From: a virus
Taxonomy: Duplodnaviria; Heunggongvirae; Uroviricota; Caudoviricetes
Direction: 5' to 3' (one strand)
DNA: 26,172 nucleotides
Virus record (IMG/VR): IMGVR_UViG_2548876702_000015
Span: 1-26,172 of that record
Shown: positions 1-26,172 of the stretch, in pieces
Layout: every line of letters begins with the position of its first letter
Numbering within the stretch: the first letter of the stretch is position 1
Notes under the pieces: model-generated
The model's database searches: none
What the model saw: the letters and a program-made list of their open reading frames with translations, nothing else
What the model was told of the DNA's origin: nothing
Position numbers and translations under genes: made by a program

Positions 1-519
1 GAATATATTTCTACATCAACTGAATATCTCGCTGTCGGCGTCGGTATCCCGGCATGTTCCTGTCTGGATGCACCAGGTACACATAAAGCTGGTTATGCAA
101 TCTGTCGCTCTGTAGATTTAAATTCATGGGAATATGTGCCAGACCATCGCGGTGAAGTTGTCTATAGTACCGAAACGGGAGATACCAAAGAAATCACAGT
201 TCCGGGTGATTACCCTGAAAATACAACCACTATCGCCCCATTAACGCCATACGATAAATGGGATGGTGAGAAATGGGTGACGGATACCGAGGCACAGCAT
301 AGCGCCGCACTAGACGCGGCAGAAGTAAAGCGCCAGTCGCTGATTGATGCTGCAATGGCTTCCATCAGTCTGATTCAACTGAAATTACAGGCCGGGCGGA
401 AGCTGACGCAGCCAGAAAACACCCGACTTAACGCTGTGCTGGATTATATTGACGCGGTGACGGCAACAGATACCAGCACCGCACAGGATGTCATCTGGCC
501 TGAACTGCCGGAGGCGTAG
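1..519 (+). CDS. Tail fibre assembly chaperone, lambda Tfa-like (G'), 5'-partial: reading frame is open to window start
   Basis: Frame 1 has no stop from nt 1 to the stop at 517-519. Translation (..SWEYVPDHRGEVVY..YDKWDGEKWVTDTEA..DVIWPELP) matches the central and C-terminal parts of lambda Tfa as recalled. The track start at 136 is a GTG inside the open frame. Convergent with G, 3' ends overlap. Confidence 0.7.
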   Translation, partial: EYISTSTEYLAVGVGIPACSCLDAPGTHKAGYAICRSVDLNSWEYVPDHRGEVVYSTETGDTKEITVPGDYPENTTTIAPLTPYDKWDGEKWVTDTEAQHSAALDAAEVKRQSLIDAAMASISLIQLKLQAGRKLTQPENTRLNAVLDYIDAVTATDTSTAQDVIWPELPEA

Positions 520-931
520 GCCATTCAATATCTGGCGCACCGGAAGTATCGACCAGTTCCAGTGCGTCCAGATAATCCAGCCACAAATTATATTGCACCA
601 GTTCCTCACCTTTCAGGCGACCAATCGCCGCTTTACCAGGCCATTGCTTACTGTTTATGTATTCGTTGACCTGATTAATCAACTGCTGCTTTTTCAGTTC
701 GGCTGCGGCAATTTGTTCCTCATGAGTTGGCGGTGGAATATCAATCCATGCAGGCATTCCGTCGATGACACCTCTGTATTTTCCTTCTGGTGCTTCCTTC
801 ATAAATTCGGCAGCAACAGTGTCGTCAATTTCGATTCCATCATCGGGCCATTCGCCGGATTCCTGATAAGCGATTTTAAGCTCCACAGGGAAAAACGCAT
901 TTTTATCGGCACTGAAAATATATTTCTGCAT
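491..931 (-). CDS. G: Tail fibre assembly protein (P2 G-like)
   Basis: 146 aa, ATG at 931-929 directly after the H stop. C-terminal Tfa signature (..LWLDYLDALELVDTSGAPDIEWPTPP). Position downstream of H. Confidence 0.8.
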   Translation of the reverse strand: MQKYIFSADKNAFFPVELKIAYQESGEWPDDGIEIDDTVAAEFMKEAPEGKYRGVIDGMPAWIDIPPPTHEEQIAAAELKKQQLINQVNEYINSKQWPGKAAIGRLKGEELVQYNLWLDYLDALELVDTSGAPDIEWPTPPAVQAR

Positions 932-933
932 TT

Positions 934-2340
934 CTACCGTCCTATCGAAATATAACTGAATCTGTATTGCTGTGAGATATCACTGGTTGCCACACGCCAC
1001 GCTGAATTACTGATATGTTCAAAATTTACAGACAAAACCTGCGGGGCAGGAATCGACGGGTCTGACTGAACGGCATCAGACATAACACTGACTGAAACCA
1101 TCGGCTGATTAGGGAATGGTATAGGGAAGTGTCCACTGATAAAGCGGGTCGTGTTTCCTGCAAAAGTGCCAAACTGAACAATATATCCACCTGGTAGCCT
1201 GAACCATCCCGAGCCAGAAGCGAATGCTCCCATATCCGGTATCTGATTATCTCCTGTGCCCACATTCCGTTTTGCCGCTTCTCCCAAACCAAGGTATGCG
1301 AGAAGACCAGCTACATCCTTTCCACTCAAATTGGTAAGCGTATTGTCCAGCGGTTGTTTACCTGCCAGCGCATTAAGCATTGTCGTGGCAAAGTTCGGAT
1401 CATTCCCCAGTGCCGCCGCCAGTTCGTTCAGTGTATCCAGTGCAGCAGGTGCAGAACCCACCATTCCTGCAATCGCCGATTTCACAAAAGCCGTAGTGGC
1501 AATCTGTGTATTGTTGACCGACTGCGCCGCCGTGGGGGCTGTTGGCGTTCCGGTGAGTGCCGGACTCGACAACGGTGCTTTTAGTGCCAGCGCATTGTTA
1601 ATGGTGGTACTGAAATTCGGATCATTGTTAATGGCTGCGGCTATTTCTTTCAGCGTGTCCAGCGTGGCTGGCGCACCATTAATAAGGGCCGTCAGTGCCG
1701 CCTGTACAAACGCAGTGGTCGCAACCTGCGTGGTATTATCCCCCGCCGCTGGCGTTGGCGCTTTGGGGGTTCCGGTAAATGTCGGGCTGGCTTTTGGCGC
1801 GTACTGTGAATGCGGGTCCGGTGCGGCAAGATGTTTTGCCATCTGATCATCCGCGTACACCTTCAGCTCCAGTACCTTGTCATCCACATACTTGCGGGTT
1901 GCCAGCACTACAGCAGGGTCGATTTTCAGGGTGATATTGTCCGTGCTTCTGGTAATCAGCACCATGCGCACGGTCTGAGTACGCCCGCTACCTTCAGCCA
2001 GTTGCGGCTTATAGCTTTCCGGGCAGTTGCCCACGGCAATCAATGCCCCGGACTCATCAAACAAGCCCACTTCACGTATCCACCAACCGCCCTCGTTTTC
2101 AGGGATCACCTGTTCGGCAATAATCTGGCTGCTGTTCTGCGGGTCGATATAAAGCATATTCAGCGCAGCCCGGCGTTTCTCATTTACCAGTGCCGTCTGC
2201 TTTGCGTCCGGCGTTGGCAATACTCCACCGCCATCGCCCACCGCCATATGGGTAATTTTTAGCGGCACACCGAGCGCGGCGGCGCTGGCAAGTTTCGCCG
2301 CGCCAATATCCGTCAGCAGGGTATAAAATTTTGTGCTCAT
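934..2340 (-). CDS. H: Tail fibre protein (P2 H-like), conserved N-terminal baseplate-attachment part plus variable C-terminal receptor-binding part
   Basis: 468 aa. N-terminus MSTKFYTLLTDIGAAKLASAAALGVPLKITHMAVGDGGG is the typical P2 H-family start. Internal Ala/Thr-rich shaft repeats. Followed by G. Confidence 0.85.
   Translation of the reverse strand: MSTKFYTLLTDIGAAKLASAAALGVPLKITHMAVGDGGGVLPTPDAKQTALVNEKRRAALNMLYIDPQNSSQIIAEQVIPENEGGWWIREVGLFDESGALIAVGNCPESYKPQLAEGSGRTQTVRMVLITRSTDNITLKIDPAVVLATRKYVDDKVLELKVYADDQMAKHLAAPDPHSQYAPKASPTFTGTPKAPTPAAGDNTTQVATTAFVQAALTALINGAPATLDTLKEIAAAINNDPNFSTTINNALALKAPLSSPALTGTPTAPTAAQSVNNTQIATTAFVKSAIAGMVGSAPAALDTLNELAAALGNDPNFATTMLNALAGKQPLDNTLTNLSGKDVAGLLAYLGLGEAAKRNVGTGDNQIPDMGAFASGSGWFRLPGGYIVQFGTFAGNTTRFISGHFPIPFPNQPMVSVSVMSDAVQSDPSIPAPQVLSVNFEHISNSAWRVATSDISQQYRFSYISIGR
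1279..1304. other. Candidate 26-bp Hin/Gin/Cin/Pin-family crossover site (hix/gix-like) inside H at the constant/variable junction
   Basis: TTCTCCCAAACC-AA-GGTATGCGAGAA is an imperfect palindrome (10 of 12 half-site positions symmetric) with a central AA. It matches about 19 of 26 positions of hixL (TTCTTGAAAACCAAGGTTTTTGATAA) as recalled. It encodes LLAYLGLGEAA at H residues ~346-356. The partner site would lie upstream of the window. Confidence 0.45.
1321..1740 (-). repeat. Imperfect tandem duplication (~220-bp unit, 2 copies) inside H encoding a repeated shaft motif
   Basis: Protein residues ~201-270 and ~275-340 repeat the pattern NTTQ(V/I)ATTAFV..GAPA.LDTL.E.AAA..NDPNF.TT..NALA.K. The DNA copies are visibly similar (e.g. 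cattgt..ggatcatt.. at ~1379 and ~1596). Boundaries are approximate. Confidence 0.55.
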
Positions 2341-2942
2341 GGATTCACTCTCATTGTGTCAATAACATGGACCGCCCCGCCTTCATGCGCGGTGCCACCG
2401 GAAATAATCGTTTCGTTGATATACGGATAGATCGTGATTTCTTCGCCAAGATAGCTGGCGGCTCCCACCCAATGCGGGCCGCTGGTCTGCAGATTGATGG
2501 ACATGCCGATCATGTGACGGCTACATGGTTTGGCATCGCTTATCAGTCGCTCAAGTTCCAGATAGGTATCTTCAGTGATGCCCTGGTCCTGCACACCAAT
2601 GTCCAGACGAAACGTGCCCGGTGTTTCTCCGGTCTGCCACCACTCAATAATGCGGATCAGGAAGCCGAACGGCTCCACCACCCGCCGTACGGCACTGGTG
2701 GTTCCTTTGTGCTGATGAATATAAAAAGCATCCTTCACTACCTGGCGTTTGACGCTTTCTGTCCAGCCCTCGTCCCAGCGATCCACAGAGAACGCCCAGG
2801 CGAGATAAGGCAGGAAGCTGACCGGACAGGTAGCCGGATTCCACAAGTCACGCAGCGGCACCTGCAAATCAGAAATCCCGCTACAGGTTTGCGCCAGTCG
2901 GCGCTCCAGTGAAGTTGAACCCGGTGGCAGCAGACTATTCAT
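2337..2942 (-). CDS. I: Baseplate assembly protein (P2 gpI-like)
   Basis: 201 aa, ATG at 2942-2940, start overlaps J stop and stop overlaps H start. Position between J and H as in P2. Confidence 0.8.
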   Translation of the reverse strand: MNSLLPPGSTSLERRLAQTCSGISDLQVPLRDLWNPATCPVSFLPYLAWAFSVDRWDEGWTESVKRQVVKDAFYIHQHKGTTSAVRRVVEPFGFLIRIIEWWQTGETPGTFRLDIGVQDQGITEDTYLELERLISDAKPCSRHMIGMSINLQTSGPHWVGAASYLGEEITIYPYINETIISGGTAHEGGAVHVIDTMRVNP

Positions 2943-7518: not shown

Positions 7519-7982
7519 CAGATAAGCTCCACTGTGCAGTGCGGCGCATCCTGCACCCGGCTGATGGCCCAGCGGGCGTCACGCCACAAATCACCGCTGG
7601 CTTCCGCCAGTTCTTCGCCTCGCTTCACACCGGATGCCGTGGCGTCATAGTCCTGGTATCGTTCGTTGAGCATGGCGCGTGCCCAGCAGTAAACCGCGTT
7701 GAAATAGTGCTGAATGCGCTCACTTTTCCCGTCCAGCTGTTCCGCCGGAACCTCTGCCAGCGAGGCATACCCCAGCATCTGCTGGCGTCTGCGAAACTCA
7801 TACAGCTCTGCGTTGACCTCCGAAATTGCCGACAGGGCAACCTGCTTTAAACGCGGCTGCGTCACCGTGCCGTCAGTGCGCATGACACTGCGAAACTCCG
7901 ACAGGTCCACATCAGGCCAGAACGGCGTATTTCTGATGATTTCCGCCTGTTCCGGTGCCTGTTCTGGCGCAACAAACTTCAT
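7518..7982 (-). CDS. L: Head completion/stabilisation protein L (P2 gpL-like)
   Basis: ATG at 7982-7980 preceded by AGGAG; 154 aa from MKFVAPEQ. The track's N-terminal extension (to 8045) is probably not translated. Confidence 0.8.
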   Translation of the reverse strand: MKFVAPEQAPEQAEIIRNTPFWPDVDLSEFRSVMRTDGTVTQPRLKQVALSAISEVNAELYEFRRRQQMLGYASLAEVPAEQLDGKSERIQHYFNAVYCWARAMLNERYQDYDATASGVKRGEELAEASGDLWRDARWAISRVQDAPHCTVELI

Positions 7983-8077
7983 GCTGCTTTCTCCTGAAAT
8001 AGAGGGCGGTGGACGGGGTTTTGATGAGGCTGTGCCTTTCGCCACCCCGTGCCGCCCGTGCGCGGGGGCACGTTCTG

Positions 8078-8728
8078 TCAGCGGCTGTCATTGCGCAGTC
8101 TGCGCTCCAGCTGCTGTTTGTCTTTTTTCACGCCACAGCGGGGATCGAGCTGTAACGCATGGTTGAGATGATTAAGGGCGGACGCCGGATTGCTTTCACT
8201 CAGGACAGCGCCAATCGCTTTATGCAGACGCGCCCGTGACTGGTCCGGCATATCCAGACCGTCTGTCAGCTCCAGCGTCTGCAGCAACAGATCAGCATCA
8301 AAGCCGGTGGCGGCAAGCATTGCGCTCTGCGCGGCGTCTGCCATTTCCTCTGCCAGCACGGTCTGCACGTTGCGGTTACCCAGCGGCATCACCCAGCCAT
8401 GACGCAGGGCATGACGCCCGATCTCCAGCGCTCCGGCATAATCTCCGGCATCAATGCGCCACAGCATCACGTACATCAGCACGTCATCCTGTTGAGCGCC
8501 TCCGGCAGCCAGGACACCCTCTGCCCAGGCGGCGTACTTCGGCAGCAGCTCCACCTTGATTTCCGCTTTTTTGACCGTGGACTGAACGCCCTTGAGACGG
8601 CGGCGGTCTTCCGCCAGTTGCAGCAGCATCAGGTCATAGCCCGACGCGTGGCGAACACTGCCACCCTCGCGAGCGGCCTGTTCAGCCTGAACGCGCAGGC
8701 GATGCTGCCGTGCGGGACTCAGGCTCAT
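8078..8728 (-). CDS. M: Terminase small (endonuclease) subunit M (P2 gpM-like)
   Basis: 216 aa, ATG at 8728-8726 just after the N stop. Position between N and L. Confidence 0.8.
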   Translation of the reverse strand: MSLSPARQHRLRVQAEQAAREGGSVRHASGYDLMLLQLAEDRRRLKGVQSTVKKAEIKVELLPKYAAWAEGVLAAGGAQQDDVLMYVMLWRIDAGDYAGALEIGRHALRHGWVMPLGNRNVQTVLAEEMADAAQSAMLAATGFDADLLLQTLELTDGLDMPDQSRARLHKAIGAVLSESNPASALNHLNHALQLDPRCGVKKDKQQLERRLRNDSR

Positions 8729-13595: not shown

Positions 13596-13640
13596 TAAAT
13601 ATGCTGGGCCCCCCCCCGGCATTTACTCACGCCCCAATTT
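13596..13640. other. Candidate cos (cohesive-end) region just downstream of the portal gene, containing a 9-C homopolymer
   Basis: In P2-family genomes cos lies next to the 3' end of Q. The reverse complement here reads GGGGCGTGAGTAAATGCCGGGGGGGGGCCCAGCAT, which resembles the GC-rich P2/186 cohesive ends (GGCG(A/T)GGCGGGGAAAGCA(C/T), as recalled) only loosely. Confidence 0.3.
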
Positions 13641-15377
13641 CCATACTGAATTATACGATAAAATACTTAGTTCAGCAGCTCTTGACCTCATATGATCGGG
13701 CGTCCATTCTCCTTGATATTTATTTTCAAATTCATCAATAAAAATTTTAACTAGCGCATATTGTGATTGTTTATAAATTTCAAGCTTATCCACAACAGAC
13801 TTATTTCCAGCTTTTTCATTTAATTCTTTTGAAAGTGGTAATAAATTTCCTATCATGCTATATACTTCAGAATCCCCCACACTCTGAGGCTGAATATGCT
13901 CTAATGTTAATGAATCAGGCATATACTCCCCCGTTTTCATGTGATGTAACTCAAGTCTATTAAAAATGTACTGAATCAACCTTTTATTTTTCAACTCTTG
14001 ATTTGAAAATTTAAGCATAACAAACTTTTCAACAAACATATTAATGTCTGGTTTTCTCTTCACCAACATTTCAAGCAAAGACTTTATTACTTGTCTATTA
14101 CTAGCTTTAGTAGAACCTTCATCCACTAAAGCCCTAGCAGCTTTAGCATACGCACTTTCAATACCTGATGGTCGCAATGAACAAATAGCATTAAACATAA
14201 AATGAAAGCGTTCAATTGACAGCACTGCATTATTCATATCAACAAGTTTTAGCGTTCCTCTTGCTCTTGCCTTAAATAAAGATAACAAAAATGGTTTATT
14301 CTGAGATATGTTAAACAGCCTTAATGCCTGCAAACCTCGATAAACTGGTTTCATTTCCAGTTCAGGAAAATCCTGTTCTGTAGGCGATGATATTTTCACA
14401 TATATCTCGGCATCTGAAAGTAGCTCATCAATGAACGCTGAAGCATCAATGTCGCCTTTTTTCCACTTATCCAGAAAAGCTTTATAAAGAGTGTCACTAC
14501 TTACATAAGAATATTTTGACACCCACCAATGACGGATAAATGTCTCGATAGAACCGACACCATTACGACTAGCAATTATTTGCCTAATTTTATTCCATTT
14601 AGTTTTTGCATCATCATCAGGATGTGTGCCATTCAGTTTCTTAAATAATTTGTTTTTTATAAGATCTACATAACTTAAGTTTAATCCCCTAGCATTCAGA
14701 GTTTCAAAGATTGTATAAGCTTCATCTTCATCATTAACTGTAATATAAATCACTTTCAGATACCGTAGAACTTGATCCCGCACAGCCTTCAACGCTTCCA
14801 AGTAGATAAATTTCTCTCTATCTACTCCTAATGTCTGGCAAAGATTATCTTCTGAAAGATACTCAGTTAAATCATTATATGAAGATTGCAAGTTTCTTTC
14901 TTCAAGGGACTCCGGTCCTTCATTTCTCTTATCAATATGCTGAATGTTGTTTTGAAAGTATGGCTTAGGAGTTTCATTAACTAATTTAAAAAAAGGTCTG
15001 CCATCGTCATCCATACCAGATATATAATTATTATATATTGATTGAGCTACAGCCAACTCATTTATCAACTTAAATTTATCACATAATGCTGATAACAATA
15101 TAGTAAGAGTCGTAAGACGTTGTTGACCATCTACAATCATCAGCTCAGAGCTAGTTTCCTGCCCGACCAAAACGAGAGCACCGATGAAATACTCATCATA
15201 TTGATACTGCCCATCCTCCTGGTAATGAATATTGGAAACTATATCATGCCAAAGTTCACTTACTTGTTCCTTCCCCCAAGAATATTCTCTTTGGAATCTA
15301 GGGACTATATATTTTTTATTTACAGATAACACGTTTGTTAAGGTTCGAGCATTTGCTTGCAGTTCCACTGAGGCCAC
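13623..15377 (-). CDS. DUF262 (ParB-like, DGQQR motif) + DUF1524 (His-Me finger) nuclease, GmrSD-like candidate type IV restriction / anti-phage protein
   Basis: 584 aa. N-terminal motifs ..YIVPRFQREYSW.. and IVDGQQRLTTL, and FETLNARG, are DUF262 hallmarks. C-terminal LEHIQPQS ... NLLPLSKELNEKAGNK fits the DUF1524 pattern. AT-rich relative to flanking phage genes. Start is GTG at 15377. Confidence 0.7.
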   Translation of the reverse strand: MASVELQANARTLTNVLSVNKKYIVPRFQREYSWGKEQVSELWHDIVSNIHYQEDGQYQYDEYFIGALVLVGQETSSELMIVDGQQRLTTLTILLSALCDKFKLINELAVAQSIYNNYISGMDDDGRPFFKLVNETPKPYFQNNIQHIDKRNEGPESLEERNLQSSYNDLTEYLSEDNLCQTLGVDREKFIYLEALKAVRDQVLRYLKVIYITVNDEDEAYTIFETLNARGLNLSYVDLIKNKLFKKLNGTHPDDDAKTKWNKIRQIIASRNGVGSIETFIRHWWVSKYSYVSSDTLYKAFLDKWKKGDIDASAFIDELLSDAEIYVKISSPTEQDFPELEMKPVYRGLQALRLFNISQNKPFLLSLFKARARGTLKLVDMNNAVLSIERFHFMFNAICSLRPSGIESAYAKAARALVDEGSTKASNRQVIKSLLEMLVKRKPDINMFVEKFVMLKFSNQELKNKRLIQYIFNRLELHHMKTGEYMPDSLTLEHIQPQSVGDSEVYSMIGNLLPLSKELNEKAGNKSVVDKLEIYKQSQYALVKIFIDEFENKYQGEWTPDHMRSRAAELSILSYNSVWKLGRE

Positions 15378-15509
15378 CTACTTTAGTTGTTTGTATTACA
15401 CAGTTTTATAGCATTGGAGTTTGAATGACAACCCGTTGCGCGCGCTCGTATCCCCGCCACGCCTGCCCGCTTTATGTAGTGGTTTTCATGCAGATGCATG
15501 CTCTACGCA

Positions 15510-15540
15510 AAAGCCCGCCAGTTCTGGCGGGCTTTTGCAA
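15510..15540 (-). terminator. Rho-independent terminator (bidirectional hairpin) after the three-gene operon
   Basis: GCCCGCC-agttct-GGCGGGC stem-loop flanked by A-run and T-run (caaaaGCCCGCCagttctGGCGGGCttttgc), 60-90 nt downstream of the stop of the 15600..16016 gene. Confidence 0.6.
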
Positions 15541-15599
15541 AAACGATCCTCAAACGATCATGCGATTTCATGCAGCATAGTCATGCAAAGTAGAAACTG

Positions 15600-16016
15600 C
15601 TATTTAACGTCCGGCGTTTGCGCTGTGGGGGATACTTTTCCATCTAGCGTATTTACAATTGAGAGGGGGTAAATTCCCATTTCAATTCCACAGATCACGT
15701 CGTAACGAGCCTGCGCTTTCTCTCGCATTTCTGGAGAAACAGGGGACGATGGTGCATTTAAAACTGCTTCGGCTTGCTTCTTCAGAGCCTTCAACCGCCT
15801 TTTCAGTTTGATTTCTTGCGGATCAACAGCATAAATCGTCCATGCAAAAGTAAAAACTTCGCTTAAAAGAATTGACACCATCGGTATTGAAGCAATGTAA
15901 AGGTCTTTCCATGTTGGATCTGTAATGAAGCTAGCCAGCTTTATTAGGAAAAGGCCTACACCGCCGCCACCTGTAACACCGACTGCTTTACCGCTTGTTT
16001 TCTTTTGTTCAGGCAT
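15600..16016 (-). CDS. Small membrane protein (2 predicted TM helices), third gene of the uncharacterised three-gene operon
   Basis: ATG at 16016-16014 with a strong AGGAAGGAG SD, 2 nt after the stop of the preceding gene; 138 aa. Hydrophobic segments GVTGGGGVGLFLIKLASFI and IPMVSILLSEVFTFAWTIYAV, with a Lys/Arg-rich helix between. Confidence 0.5.
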   Translation of the reverse strand: MPEQKKTSGKAVGVTGGGGVGLFLIKLASFITDPTWKDLYIASIPMVSILLSEVFTFAWTIYAVDPQEIKLKRRLKALKKQAEAVLNAPSSPVSPEMREKAQARYDVICGIEMGIYPLSIVNTLDGKVSPTAQTPDVK

Positions 16017-16272
16017 GAGAGGCTGACTCCTTCCTCTCACGCTTATTTTTCTCTGCTATATCATCGATGAGCTTTATTAACTCATCATCATTGTTTATAT
16101 AAATATTTGTTTTATAGACATTTTTGTTTGCATCAGTATAAGTGATAGAAACTTTTGTTTCGACAATAACTCGATCGAGCAGGCTACGTATAGCCACTCT
16201 AGCACCTATAAATATAGCTGGAGCTGCAACAAGCAGCCCCAACCATCCTAACACACTAATATCTATAGACAT
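16009..16272 (-). CDS. Small single-pass membrane protein, second gene of the three-gene operon
   Basis: 87 aa, ATG at 16272-16270, 2 nt after the stop of the 304-aa gene. N-terminal TM helix (ISVLGWLGLLVAAPAIFIGARVAI) then a charged soluble tail. Confidence 0.5.
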   Translation of the reverse strand: MSIDISVLGWLGLLVAAPAIFIGARVAIRSLLDRVIVETKVSITYTDANKNVYKTNIYINNDDELIKLIDDIAEKNKRERKESASHA

Positions 16273-16274
16273 TT

Positions 16275-17189
16275 TTAATCCGCATCAGGTTTTATTTTTC
16301 TATCTTTGGCGGCAAAGTGTCGACCCACTTTGATGATCGATAACTTTTCGTCTACCTGGCCACCGGAATCTTTCACAATTTTCTTCATCTTCACAGCAAA
16401 CAATTCGCCAAAAATTTTGGGGGCGTCTGGTCCAGTAACAAGCTTGATGAACTCATTATCTTCCATTCTGACATTGCGCTTTTCACCGCCAAACTCAACA
16501 CGCCAGCCACTTTTTTTGTCAGTATGCGCCGAAACGAATGTCACGGTTGTTTCAAATTCGTCAACTTCTTCTTTGGTTTCAAAGAGAACTTTTGGCGACT
16601 TAAACTCTTCTGCCTCATCTTTATGAATTTTGAGGATTTCTTTCTTAGAGGTGCGCGATTTTTTTACCACAAAATTGTCGATACCATCTTGTAACAGAGG
16701 CTGTCTGACAAACGCGTCAACAGCCTTACGAATCTCTGGGGCATTAACGATTTTTTCGACATCTTCAGAGCAAACAATCTCTTCACCATCGACTTTCAGC
16801 TTAACTTTGTCACTACCGTTAGCTTTCTCGACTATGTCGATCTTACGCCCGTTAAGCTTCTTGAGAACCTCTAAAACTGTAGCACCGCCAACGGCTAAAG
16901 GAATGGCTGACAAACCTAAAATTTGTACAACATCTTTAGCATTAGCTAGATGTTGTACAACCTCAATATCAAACCCAAAGGAACCGGCTATCAATTCAGC
17001 GTCAACGTTAACTTCAATGTCTCGCCCTCCGTTTACAATCTCATTTGCAGAGTAGATAGCCTCACCTAGCCCCTGCAAACTTTTCGCAAACGAAAGAATA
17101 TCCATCTTATGATCGTCGAGAGCTTTGCCTTGATACACAATACTTACTGATTGAGTCTTATCCGCCATTGAGTTCAGATCCGTTGCCAA
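16275..17189 (-). CDS. Hypothetical soluble protein (~297-304 aa), first gene of the three-gene operon; no family recognised
   Basis: Long ORF with coding-like composition, Lys/Glu/Asp-rich C-terminal half. TTG at 17189 or ATG at 17168 are possible starts. AT-rich accessory context. Confidence 0.55.
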   Translation of the reverse strand: MATDLNSMADKTQSVSIVYQGKALDDHKMDILSFAKSLQGLGEAIYSANEIVNGGRDIEVNVDAELIAGSFGFDIEVVQHLANAKDVVQILGLSAIPLAVGGATVLEVLKKLNGRKIDIVEKANGSDKVKLKVDGEEIVCSEDVEKIVNAPEIRKAVDAFVRQPLLQDGIDNFVVKKSRTSKKEILKIHKDEAEEFKSPKVLFETKEEVDEFETTVTFVSAHTDKKSGWRVEFGGEKRNVRMEDNEFIKLVTGPDAPKIFGELFAVKMKKIVKDSGGQVDEKLSIIKVGRHFAAKDRKIKPDAD

Positions 17190-20263: not shown

Positions 20264-21093
20264 TACGCAATCTCCAGTTCGAGCTGTGAAGGCTGCAAAC
20301 CATTCGACAGCCAATCAGAAACTGAAGGTGGGCGAACAGCTTCAATTGCACCTTTTAAAATTGCGCAACGGTTTTTCAGAATGACAGCTTTCAGCTCCTT
20401 TTCCGTCAGATTGCGCGAATACTCAGCCTCCTGAATAGCCCGCGTCAGCTCAGGATATTTGCTATTAAATTTGGGGACATTGCAGGCAAGATTTGTACTG
20501 TCGGCAGTCGCCAGTGGGTAATTTCCCAACACACGACCGTCAAGCATGCGCAAACCATGAACAGCTGTTTTGAAATTGTGTCGGCAATAAATTGCTTCAA
20601 AAGCGTCCTGCATACGACGATGCCAGTGCGCAGTTCTGATAGCCGCATATTCACCAGACGATCCAAAGCAGACACGAGGCCATTCACGACATAGCTCGAT
20701 AAGCCGATCGATTGACTCGTGCAGATGCCAGACGGGAGTTGCCTTCCCGTAGAACATTTTCGGAACTTCGTTTATCAGGGCATCATTGTCACGTTCACCT
20801 CCGTCCACAACATCAGGAATGACAAAAAAAGCGACCTTAGGATGGTGGTAATAGTTCAGGAGCCATTTATAAAAATCACTCCAGTTAATTTTTAGCCCAC
20901 GCACCCATGCAGAAAATGCGCCGTTATCAATGCCGACGACCTGAGCGTGCTGAATGGACGCCGCAATCTGATCTGGTCGTACATAGGAGACGAAAGCGCC
21001 AGCTCCGCTCACCGCAATACGATGAACGTCGCCAGCACTTCCCCAGACAGGCGTCCCATGGAAATGATGAATTCCGTGGTGCATTTCTTTCAC
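20263..21093 (-). CDS. Hypothetical protein (~273 aa), His-rich N-terminus, co-transcribed between Dam and A; function unknown
   Basis: Track start is GTG at 21093; ATG at 21084-21082 gives [15 protein letters not shown]... Stop overlaps the A start (TAATG). No family confidently recognised. Confidence 0.55.
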
Positions 21094-21944
21094 ACTTGCA
21101 CCCCGAAAATAACAGTAGAGTCACGTCCCCTACTAAAATCGGCACTAAACCAATTAGCAGATTTAGTGGCAATCATCTCTGTTGCAAATTTTCCCTCCCC
21201 CGCTGCAACGCCGATGCTGCGTTTCGCCCTGATGTAGTGGTGAGTGAAATTACGATAAAGGGACCGGGTCAAAGACGTGTTACTGTTAGAAACAATGACC
21301 GGATGTCCTTCTGATGACCGATGTTCAAGAATGGATGCCAGGTGATACTGATCATCTTCAGTGAAACCATCAGTGTGATAGCCGGAAAACGTACCGTCAT
21401 AAGGCGGATCGCAATACACCACATCCCCCACCTTCAACATCGCCAGCGTTTCATCAAAGCTGGCGCAGATAAACGTTGCCCGCTGGGCTTTCTCTGCAAA
21501 TGCGCGAATTTCTTTTTCAGGGAAATACGGATTTTTATAATTACCGTAGGGAATGTTGAAATGCCCGCTCTTGTTATAGCGACATAAACCACGGTAACCG
21601 TGACGATTGAGATACAGGAAATATACCGCTTTCATGAAATCAGTAATTTCAGTGGAGTAATTAAACTCCTGCCTTATGTTGTAATAAGCCGCCTCCCTGT
21701 TTGCTTCCTCAAATAAAGCTCTGGCACGAGATATAAACGCCTCACAATCAGCAGCAACCTTTTTATAGAGGTTGATTAAATCAGGATTAATATCCGCAAC
21801 AAGATAGCTGGGGTAATCCGTCTCCATCATCACTGCACAGGAACCCGCGAAAGGTTCAACCAGTCGCGGGCCAGCAGGAAGATGCTTTTTCAGTTCGGAC
21901 ATTATGGCGGTTTTATTTCCTGCCCATTTCAGGATGGTGCTCAT
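21090..21944 (-). CDS. dam: DNA adenine methyltransferase (Dam/D12 class N6-adenine MTase)
   Basis: ATG at 21944-21942 ([11 protein letters not shown]..). SAM-binding motif ..[10 protein letters not shown].. and catalytic DPPY motif (VYCDPPYDG). 284 aa. Confidence 0.8.
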
Positions 21945-22168
21945 ACAGCACCTCCGTTGTAATGTTTGCCTTTCAGCTCTGCGATTTCCTGACAGGTAAT
22001 GCAAAGCTGCACACCCGGAATGGCACGGCGGCGTGCTGGCGGAATTGGCGCTTCACACTCAACGCAAAGCACGCGGGACACGCCCGGCGTTTTGGCACGG
22101 GCAGCACGGATATGGCGTTGGCGTTCTTCTTCAACGCGCTGCTGTACGAGATCCATTGCATCAGCCAT
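21941..22168 (-). CDS. TraR/DksA-family C4 zinc-finger protein
   Basis: 75 aa, ATG at 22168-22166. CVECEAPIP..(x17)..CITCQ four-cysteine zinc-finger spacing. Stop overlaps the Dam start. Confidence 0.7.
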   Translation of the reverse strand: MADAMDLVQQRVEEERQRHIRAARAKTPGVSRVLCVECEAPIPPARRRAIPGVQLCITCQEIAELKGKHYNGGAV

Positions 22169-24931: not shown

Positions 24932-25119
24932 CTTTTGCTTTTATATCTGCGTCTAAAATAAAAATGAGCCGCAGGTTAACCGCAAAAGTTACATGCTCAC
25001 ATAGCAAAAAGAATAGCCAACTTCATGATGGCTTCAGTGAGATGTATGGTCGTAGGATTTCATACATTGACACTGGTTATACATACAGTAAAAATGCTCT
25101 CTACTGGAGGGCATTTTTT

Positions 25120-26172
25120 ATGGCAGTACGAAAACTCACCACAGGGAAATGGCTTTGCGAATGTTACCCCGCCGGACGTAGTGGACGTCGTGTGCGTAAA
25201 CAATTCGCCACCAAAGGCGAAGCTCTGGCTTTTGAGCGCCACACGATGGAAGAAACCGAAGCAAAGCCCTGGCTGGGTGAATCAGTGGATCGTCGAACAC
25301 TGAAAGACGTAGTTGAGCTATGGTTCAAACTACATGGTAAATCTCTGACAGCTGGGCAGCATGTCTATGACAAATTGCTGTTGATGGTTGACGCTCTGGG
25401 TAATCCTCTTGCAACCGATCTCACCTCTAAAATGTTTGCCCACTATCGAGATAAACGCCTGACAGGCGAGATCTACTTCAGCGAGAAATGGAAGAAAGGA
25501 GCAAGCCCGGTCACCATTAACCTGGAGCAAAGCTATCTAAGTAGTGTTTTTAGCGAACTATCCCGTCTGGGCGAATGGTCGTATCCGAACCCACTGGAGA
25601 ACATGCGAAAATTCACCATCGCAGAAAAAGAGATGGCATGGCTTACCCATGAGCAGATTGTTGAATTGCTGGCTGATTGCAAACGTCAGGACCCAATTCT
25701 GGCACTGGTAGTTAAGATATGCTTAAGCACAGGCGCACGCTGGCGTGAAGCCGTAAATCTTACCCGCTCCCAGGTGACCAAATACCGAATTACCTTTGTC
25801 AGAACGAAGGGGAAGAAAAACAGAAGCATCCCTATCAGTAAAGAGCTTTACGAAGAGATCATGGCGCTTGATGGGTTCAATTTCTTTACAGACTACTATT
25901 TTCAATTTTTATCCGTGATGGAAAAAACGTCTATCGTGCTCCCTCGCGGTCAACTCACACACGTTCTGCGCCATACGTTTGCGGCGCACTTCATGATGTC
26001 GGGTGGAAACATTCTCGCCTTACAAAAAATTCTCGGACACCACGATATAAAAATGACTATGCGTTACGCACATCTGGCACCAGATCATCTGGAAACGGCG
26101 CTCCGTTTCAATCCTCTGGCAACGCTGCCAAGTGGCGACAAAGTGGCGGCAGCGGTTGGCATTACCCCGTAA
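25120..26172 (+). CDS. int: Tyrosine integrase (P2/186 Int family)
   Basis: ATG at 25120 with a GGAGG SD; 350 aa starting MAVRKLTTGKW.., paralleling P2 Int (MAIKKLDDGRYEV..). Catalytic-region motifs ..LSTGARWREA.. and ..HVLRHTFA..MTMRYAHL. Stop is at the window edge. Confidence 0.85.
   Translation: MAVRKLTTGKWLCECYPAGRSGRRVRKQFATKGEALAFERHTMEETEAKPWLGESVDRRTLKDVVELWFKLHGKSLTAGQHVYDKLLLMVDALGNPLATDLTSKMFAHYRDKRLTGEIYFSEKWKKGASPVTINLEQSYLSSVFSELSRLGEWSYPNPLENMRKFTIAEKEMAWLTHEQIVELLADCKRQDPILALVVKICLSTGARWREAVNLTRSQVTKYRITFVRTKGKKNRSIPISKELYEEIMALDGFNFFTDYYFQFLSVMEKTSIVLPRGQLTHVLRHTFAAHFMMSGGNILALQKILGHHDIKMTMRYAHLAPDHLETALRFNPLATLPSGDKVAAAVGITP

Follow-up and report, generated by a model that had tools for sequence, protein, structure and literature searches.

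The window analysed here, a 26,172-nt stretch of DNA, opens within a group of tail-fibre genes. Its first 519 nucleotides (1..519, + strand; stop codon at 517–519) encode residues 29–200 of G′, a TfaE-like tail-fibre assembly chaperone that belongs to the silent tip. The first 84 nt of this gene are absent from the window, since the full gene in the E. coli contig L003 (positions 7822–8424) specifies a protein of 200 aa, with Caudo_TAP_N and Caudo_TAP domains. Facing G′ on the opposite strand is G (491..931, − strand), the 146-aa chaperone of the expressed tip, with a Pfam Caudo_TAP domain (E = 9e-34). The two genes converge and their 3′ ends overlap by 29 nt (491–519), as the original prediction had described. 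G is co-oriented with the tail-fibre gene H (934..2340, − strand) and starts 3 nt past the H stop codon. The 468-aa H protein carries a Phage_tail_fib domain at residues 1–150 and a C-terminal Gp53-like_C domain at residues 381–468. Its constant N-terminal part (1293..2340, − strand; residues 1 to ~349) lies outside the invertible segment, while Hv, the variable C-terminal receptor-binding module that is currently expressed (934..1278, − strand; residues 355–468), lies inside it, as do G and G′. Positions 1..1292 make up the window's share of this ~1.88-kb segment, and some 590 nt more lie upstream, up to the core of a partner site.

The boundary between the two parts of H is a 26-bp recombination (crossover) site at 1279..1304, TTCTCCCAAACCAAGGTATGCGAGAA, which runs in frame within the gene and consists of an inner half-site (1279–1290), an AA core (1291–1292) and an outer half-site (1293–1304). 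Because the site encodes H residues 346–354 (LLAYLGLGE), the variable part comprises the last 114 residues, about one quarter of the protein; the expectation that a variable C-terminus begins at the site was borne out, and its share of H is smaller than the third originally proposed. The palindromic pattern TTCTCNNAAACCAAGGTTTNNGAGAA has a single match in the 26-kb window (1 mismatch, + strand) and gave 0.00 matches in 100 dinucleotide-preserving shuffles, which upholds the earlier description of an imperfect 26-bp palindrome with central AA at this position. BLAST matches to many phage genomes begin or end at 1278/1279 or at 1292/1295, that is, at the site. Its inner arm and core are identical to TTGGTTTGGGAGAA, the sequence common to both P-segment repeats of the E. 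coli K-12 element e14, as quoted in PMC12529663, and its half-sites resemble Mu gix (read from NC_000929). The outer half-sites, TTCTCGCATACC and TTTTCTTAAACG, fall short of a perfect palindrome. A resemblance to hixL had been proposed; it holds for the 26-bp length and the AA core, although, among characterised systems, the e14 P segment with PinE is a closer relative than hix with Hin.

Sequence upstream of nucleotide 1 was read from contig L003 rather than from the window's own record. L003 extends further upstream and can supply this sequence because it is identical to the window over 8,340 nt (0 mismatches). The partner site, alternative H C-terminus and serine invertase that had been predicted to lie upstream of nucleotide 1 are all present there. 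Exactly two sites occur in the 13.4 kb of L003, in inverted orientation and with cores TT and AA, where shuffles gave an expectation of 0.00. The partner, at L003 8919–8944, lies 578–603 nt upstream of window nucleotide 1, and the two cores (L003 7049–7050 and 8931–8932) are 1,882 bp apart. Across inner arm and core the two sites are exact inverted repeats of 14 bp, found both by an inverted-repeat search with a 12-nt seed and by the pattern search. The locus thus has the paired inverted 26-bp sites with matching 2-bp cores that mark Gin/Hin/Cin/Pin systems. Next to the partner site, and in frame with it, is H′v, a promoterless alternative C-terminus for H with a Collar domain. The same arrangement recurs elsewhere: each whole cassette locus (10 of 10) has one site pair, ~1.8–1.9 kb apart, and L017, which has no cassette, has no sites. 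In L001 an inverted-repeat search with an 8-nt seed missed the pair, because a mismatch in the H-side inner arm splits the seed. A third site, as in the multi-inversion systems of one EPEC prophage or p15B Min, was not found in L003 or the cassette loci.

An intact serine invertase gene of 188 codons (L003 9000–9566, outside the window) starts 55 bp past the partner site, and at every intact locus a Gin/Pin homologue is found at this distance from one site. The product contains Resolvase (E = 7e-53) and HTH_7 (E = 1e-15) domains and aligns over its full length with the Gin structures 3uj3 and 4m6f (E = 6e-93), with the catalytic serine in the motif YVRVSTNDQ; this architecture, with its active-site serine, is that of the Fis/enhancer-dependent invertases. 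It is 73% identical to Mu Gin, 85.6% to e14 PinE and 66% to P1-type Cin, and 99.5% identical to the invertase of Klebsiella phage KP12. The enhancer of Fis-dependent invertases lies within the invertase gene, at its 5′ end, and comprises two Fis sites ~100 bp from the closest recombination site. Here, counted from the first base of the start codon, two Fis-like G-N13-C 15-mers, assigned by sequence resemblance, occur 21 and 70 nt downstream; the first, a putative Fis site, is centred 96 bp from the site core. Between them, ATTTG and TAATG resemble the ATTTA and TAATG described for hin. The Fis-contact residues Q-x-x-R-L (Hin Q151, R154 and L155), which are conserved in Fis-dependent invertases and not in resolvases (PMC3798978), are present as QIGRLL (EQWAQIGRLLEAG here versus EWEQAGRLLAQG in Gin). 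Consensus scans for a promoter upstream of the invertase gene and for terminators around it returned nothing above the shuffle expectation. Since the promoters of Gin-family invertases are weak, such a scan is an insensitive test for the promoter.

When the segment is inverted in silico, the reading frame is preserved and the result is a 518-aa H with G′ directly after it. Native and flipped H have the first 354 residues in common and then diverge, LLAYLGLGE being followed by AAKR... or GSALP..., and each tip brings its own Tfa-family chaperone: G comes after Hv, and G′ comes after H′v with an ATGA overlap. A constant N-terminus thus meets either of two C-termini at an in-frame site. The constant part of H stays attached to the baseplate operon V-W-J-I-H and joins the variable module that is turned towards it. 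The tips fall into two separate Pfam families, Gp53-like_C and Collar, which fits, at the level of domain assignment, recognition of different receptors.

Both orientations occur in nature, as judged by comparison across isolates rather than within one culture. The predicted 518-aa flipped H is, verbatim, a deposited E. coli protein present on 8 contigs; the native 468-aa form is present on 12. When the in-silico junction was used as a BLAST query, the flipped junction was recovered from complete genomes at up to 100% identity, and of 5,426 complete E. coli genomes, 392 have a native-type junction and 503 a flipped-type one. One complete E. coli genome (L005) contains a full flipped locus that is colinear with the inverted L003 sequence over 5 kb at 97.9% identity. 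Compared with native L003, the block corresponding to L003 7049–8935 is inverted in L005 with 98.9% identity, and the alignment breaks at both sites. Natural isolates, then, include both orientations of the segment, and the breakpoints coincide with the sites.

The cassette is seated in a P2/186-like tail region with the order V-W-J-I-H-G, followed by sheath FI and tube FII, as seen in the annotation of near-identical loci and in Pfam calls on L003. Such an order, together with P2-family capsid, terminase, portal and lysis genes and an integrase, is characteristic of the P2/186-like prophages (Peduoviridae), among which the element is placed. The remainder of the window matches a prophage with CI, CII, Fil, a replication endonuclease and an integrase; no tRNA genes were found in the window. 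The exact G protein is found in P2-like, Mu-like and other prophages, and among the matches listed 10 of 10 have a Resolvase-family gene annotated next to the cassette.

Based on these results, we conclude, with a probability of about 0.93, that a 186/P2-like E. coli prophage carries an invertible host-range cassette of the Pin/Gin type, whose H-proximal two thirds occupy window positions 1–1304. The anatomy and homologies of the cassette, its in-frame fusions and its two natural isomers with breakpoints at the sites are direct observations. We infer that the invertase is catalytically active in the window's own strain, that its activity depends on Fis and that each tip confers its own host range. 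In this layout the constant part of H is transcribed with the baseplate genes and ends at the 26-bp site. Between the sites lie Hv and G, then, on the other strand, G′ and H′v, with the partner site ~1.88 kb off, a short way beyond the window, and the invertase gene 55 bp past it. In the mechanism we propose by analogy with Gin and Hin, the invertase would bind both sites, be activated by an enhancer to which Fis binds at the 5′ end of the invertase gene, cut the 2-bp core and exchange strands, so that the segment flips. The window orientation would yield H with the gp53-like tip and co-expressed G, and the flipped orientation H with the Collar-domain tip and co-expressed G′. If the segment flips in this way, a lysogen population would release phage with two receptor specificities.

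Could the cassette instead be a fossil, derived from an invertible segment but now fixed in one orientation because its outer half-sites have decayed, its invertase is not expressed or its enhancer has been lost? Locked relatives do exist: L002 has a frameshifted invertase, H26 an IS1 insertion within the cassette, and L007 a 104-aa invertase remnant. The imperfect outer half-sites and the failure of the scan to find a promoter-like site upstream of the invertase gene point the same way, although the latter carries little weight given the insensitivity of that scan to the weak promoters of this family. However, the window-identical contig encodes a full-length invertase with its catalytic serine, and the 8 contigs with the exact flipped H combine the same H-constant and H′v alleles with 0 residue changes, against 12 native contigs. 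This same-allele pattern is hard to obtain otherwise and thus argues for recent switching, which makes a fixed orientation improbable.

An origin of the 26-bp palindrome by chance within the H coding sequence would be compatible with its single copy in the window, but shuffles of both the window and L003 gave 0.00 matches, the partner stands at the predicted place and the pair is conserved at every cassette locus examined; we reject this reading. It is also highly improbable, more so than a fixed orientation, that the two arrangements are products of RecA-type or illegitimate recombination, or of fibre modules passing horizontally between prophages, with the 26-bp element serving as a conserved coding motif (LGLGE) at a module boundary. 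The exchange of modules would account for the way in which homology between otherwise different phages begins or ends at the site, for the identical G chaperone in P2-like, Mu-like and other backbones, and for the several such cassettes in many genomes (median 2 places per genome). Nonetheless, L005 is a clean inversion bounded by both sites with the rest colinear, a Gin/Pin homologue accompanies one site at its constant 55-bp distance, and the homologous e14 repeats have been inverted experimentally by Pin-family enzymes (PMC12529663). Exchange at the site is, moreover, compatible with an invertase and forms no true alternative to it. Recombination by RecA was rejected: the shared repeat, at just 14–17 bp, is too short to be efficient, and both the site-bounded inversion and the adjoining invertase oppose it.

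Reading the locus as an invertible cassette has consequences for annotation, in which two "phage tail protein" fragments and a "recombinase family protein" beside H form one functional unit. The unit adjoins H in many P2-like prophages of E. coli, Klebsiella and Salmonella, and any H prediction made from an assembly represents one product out of two; in short-read assemblies such segments cause breaks or appear in the wrong orientation. Release by a lysogen of a phage mixture with two specificities bears on host-range prediction and phage typing. The switch may also serve the lysogen. Flipping joins the gp53-like tip to an 18-codon stub beside the invertase gene, and the resulting 132-aa ORF corresponds in position to e14 StfE2, a protein that, according to a 2025 report, prevents phage T2 from adsorbing (PMC12529663). 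We offer as a speculation, and a rather unlikely one, that P2-like prophages carry an invertase-gated superinfection-exclusion protein as part of a mobile, two-purpose module. If this were true, a cassette with identical G across P2-like, Mu-like and other prophages could be operated in trans by the invertases of co-resident prophages.

Host-range switches of this kind are already well known, and the one described here is real and not novel; the mechanism of inversion has been a textbook subject since the work on Mu Gin and e14 Pin. The layout shared with the Mu G and e14 P segments, which the original prediction had recognised, is confirmed by a gene order that matches e14 and by a logic (Sc-Sv-U / U′-S′v) that matches Mu. 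In the e14 P segment, which lies in a cryptic prophage of E. coli K-12 (stfP-tfaP / tfaE-stfE / pinE), the order is the same as here: constant fibre, site, variable tip, chaperone, convergent chaperone, silent tip, site, invertase. The cores are 1,827 bp apart in e14 and 1,882 bp apart here. Identity to e14 is 85.6% for the invertase and PinE, 89.5% for G′ and TfaE, 58% for H′v and StfE and 56% for G and TfaP. The gp53-like tip had no BLASTP match to StfP at E ≤ 1e-5; fused to the stub, it is 27% identical to the inversion product StfE2. e14 is a defective lambdoid element, whereas the present cassette lies in an apparently complete 186/P2-like prophage and its constant part, unlike that of e14, is a full P2-type H with a Phage_tail_fib domain.

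The Mu G segment with Gin has 26-bp sites with half-sites of the form TTnTCnnAAACC, as here; the site lies 54 bp from the invertase gene in Mu and 55 bp here, and in both gin and the present gene Fis-like motifs occur at +21 and +70 nt from the first base of the start codon. Another member of this group is the P1 C segment with Cin. The Mu core is GA rather than AA, and its segment is 3.06 kb rather than 1.9 kb long. Searches of Hv, H′v, G and G′ against the Mu G region (S, U, U′ and S′) gave no hits (tblastn, E ≤ 1e-3), and the cargo is therefore unrelated to that of Mu, though the recombinases and sites are related. Salmonella Hin, with hixL and hixR, likewise has 26-bp sites with an AA core, a recombinase of the same family and the conserved Fis-contact residues; its 52-residue DNA-binding domain, the only part of Hin among the solved structures, matches the invertase described here (E = 6.5e-9). 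Hin flips a promoter that controls flagellin genes, whereas inversion here fuses coding sequences.

The same phage type with a cassette between H and sheath FI is represented by P2-like prophages of EPEC E2348/69 and by Salmonella Fels-2 with fin. These invertible loci resemble the present one in layout, with an invertase at the same hotspot and alternative C-termini on a constant N-terminus. In the EPEC E2348/69 prophages both orientations coexist in culture, as seen by read mapping and PCR (Goldberg et al. 2014, PMC4272514), and for Fels-2 fin a comparison of two Salmonella strains pointed to inversion (PMC7953296); tail-fibre inversion in P2-like phages has also been noted in general (bioRxiv 10.1101/2024.10.15.618418). 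Three sites and four variants are present at one EPEC locus, compared with two of each at the present locus. The cassette itself is related to the e14 P segment and is seated in a 186/P2-like prophage.

The tail-fibre gene H (934-2340, minus strand) encodes a 468-aa protein with Pfam Phage_tail_fib at its N-terminus and Gp53-like_C in its variable C-terminal tip, Hv. Two chaperone ORFs matching Pfam Caudo_TAP accompany it in the window's first 2.4 kb: G (491-931, minus strand; 146 aa) and G′ (1-519, plus strand; open at the window start), which converge with a 29-nt overlap. The crossover site, TTCTCCCAAACCAAGGTATGCGAGAA, is located inside H at 1279-1304 and codes for H residues 346-354 (LLAYLGLGE). 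Our site pattern, first drawn from the hix/gix consensus and then anchored on real sites (Mu gixL and gixR from NC_000929, and the e14 repeats), matches 1279-1304 only in 26 kb, with 0.00 matches in 100 shuffles. The 26-bp palindrome in H and the converging chaperones of the original prediction are confirmed. In megablast comparisons, matches to many phage genomes start or stop at 1278/1279 or 1292/1295, making the crossover site a mosaic boundary.

The exact H protein was found on 16 public contigs. One of them, L003 (600 kb; E. coli assembly GCA_047595155.1), shares 8,340 bases with the window without a single mismatch and continues past window nt 1 (L003 nt 8340), supplying 84 nt of G′ absent from the window and completing a 200-aa protein. 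An inverted partner site, an alternative H C-terminus and a serine invertase had been predicted upstream of nt 1, and all three are present in L003. H′v, the silent fibre tip, is a 549-nt ORF that runs in the same direction as G′ and encodes a Collar domain (L003 8424-8972); the pattern search places the partner site, TTCTCCCAAACCAACGTTTAAGAAAA, at L003 8919-8944; and 55 bp past it lies a 188-aa Resolvase + HTH_7 gene (L003 9000-9566), followed by the sheath gene FI. Exactly two sites occur in the 13.4-kb L003 locus (0.00 expected), with a core-to-core distance of 1,882 bp. A repeat finder returned them as a 27-nt inverted pair, and across the inner half-site and core the inverted match is exact over 14 bp. 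Since their cores read TT and AA on one strand, the two sites are inverted relative to each other. Eight of the 16 exact-H contigs were grouped with L004 (GCA_019523085.1), the one member of this group that was read; it terminates inside the silent H′v, at the equivalent of ~380 nt before the window start, suggesting that this repeated or invertible region is a place where short-read assemblies break.

When L003 was inverted in silico, core to core, the H frame remained intact, giving a 518-aa product that is the same as window H up to residue 354, continues into the Collar module and is directly followed by G′. This exact 518-aa protein is a deposited E. coli protein on 8 contigs, and the 468-aa window form is found on 12. 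A 1,199-nt query spanning the predicted flipped junction gave full-length, single-piece matches in six complete E. coli genomes, with identity up to 98.7%. One of these loci, L005, has the complete flipped arrangement: H::Collar and G′ are followed by oppositely oriented G and a gp53-like fragment, and these by the recombinase and the sheath gene. Over 5 kb, L005 and inverted L003 are colinear, with 97.9% identity; native L003 aligns to L005 in three pieces, the middle one (L003 7049-8935) being inverted. Among 5,426 complete genomes, 120-nt junction probes detected the native type in 392 and the flipped type in 503. All ten cassette loci fetched whole have one site pair, ~1.8-1.9 kb apart, and in these loci the outer half-sites remain with the flanks in either segment orientation. 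Taken across isolates, these sequence comparisons support inversion of the segment. The original interpretation is supported in all of its testable predictions.

L002 (CP019275.1), a 37,446-bp circular record, is listed as E. coli plasmid p13P477T-2 and comprises an entire P2-like phage genome; it has the same cassette, presumably locked because its invertase is frameshifted. In E. coli CFSAN051542, the full-length hit that best matches window 1-2400 (NZ_CP020835.1 1253230-1256405) has IS1A inserted within the cassette.

The invertase aligns end to end with crystallised Mu Gin (3uj3, 4m6f; E=6e-93), and the catalytic motif YVRVST is part of the alignment. Its identity is 73% to Gin, 85.6% to e14 PinE, ~66% to a P1-type Cin and 99.5% to the Klebsiella phage KP12 invertase, and the site-to-gene spacing of 55 bp in L003 matches the 54 bp of Mu. 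Two Fis-like G-N13-C 15-mers occur both in this gene and in gin, 21 and 70 nt past the first base of the start codon. From the site core to the centre of the first 15-mer is 96 bp; the native hin enhancer is ~100 bp from hixL (PMC3798978). According to the same paper (PMC3798978), Hin residues Q151, R154 and L155 are found specifically in invertases that depend on Fis, and the protein encoded here contains QIGRLL. We infer that it is Fis-dependent.

The annotated silent-tip ORF begins beyond the invertible segment, its ATG lying in the 55 bp that separate the partner site from the invertase gene, and each orientation therefore yields a different ORF fused to an 18-codon stub (L003 8919-8972; flipped counterpart, L005 5625-6023). 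The window's state gives a 182-aa StfE-like ORF; in the flipped state the stub joins the gp53-like tip in a 132-aa StfE2-like ORF with a gp53-like domain. The latter is the positional counterpart of e14 StfE2 (27% identity, E=3e-5), which according to a recent report prevents T2 from adsorbing (PMC12529663).

The cassette is carried by a 186/P2-like prophage, whose genes run from baseplate and tail fibre through lysis, capsid, terminase and portal to replication endonuclease, CI, CII, Fil and an integrase ORF (24964-26172, plus strand) whose stop codon is the exact window end. Between the portal and replication genes, a minus-strand cargo island (13623-17189) looks like a P2 anti-phage defence hotspot. 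It encodes a 584-aa GmrSD-family type IV restriction enzyme (Pfam GmrSD_N + GmrSD_C; PADLOC HEC-06, E=4e-90), a 304-aa protein matching PADLOC candidate PDC-S42 (E=8e-44) and two small ORFs (15600-16040, 16009-16272) with no family match. A Dam-type N6-adenine methyltransferase (MethyltransfD12, E=1e-76) lies at 21090-22004 on the minus strand.

The cassette moves between phage backbones. The exact 146-aa G also occurs in P2-like prophages whose H constant parts differ, and identical G with the cassette is found in a Mu-like prophage (L008; Mu Gp45/46/48 baseplate), in another element of myovirus type, where an invertase truncated to 104 aa lies beside non-phage genes (L007), and in a rearranged single-site locus between terminase/portal and tail genes (L009). 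For L007, L008 and the P2-like prophages with other H constant parts, homology to L003 begins at L003 7046, within the site. It is a long-standing idea that such recombination sites double as module-exchange points, and both the sharing of G and the start of homology inside the site fit such exchange.

The closest known system is the P segment of e14 in E. coli K-12, which matches the cassette in gene order and shares its inner arm and core, TTGGTTTGGGAGAA. TfaE (89.5% to G′) and PinE (85.6% to the invertase) are close homologues; StfE (58% to H′v) and TfaP (56% to G) are more distant. Neither the fibre tips nor the chaperones of the cassette are related to their Mu counterparts. The feature belongs to a well-known class, its sequences are common in databases, and P2-like prophages are already known to invert tail-fibre segments: read mapping and PCR showed this in EPEC E2348/69 (PMC4272514), genome comparison documents it in Fels-2 with fin (PMC7953296), and it has been described as general to the P2 tail-fibre hotspot (bioRxiv 10.1101/2024.10.15.618418).
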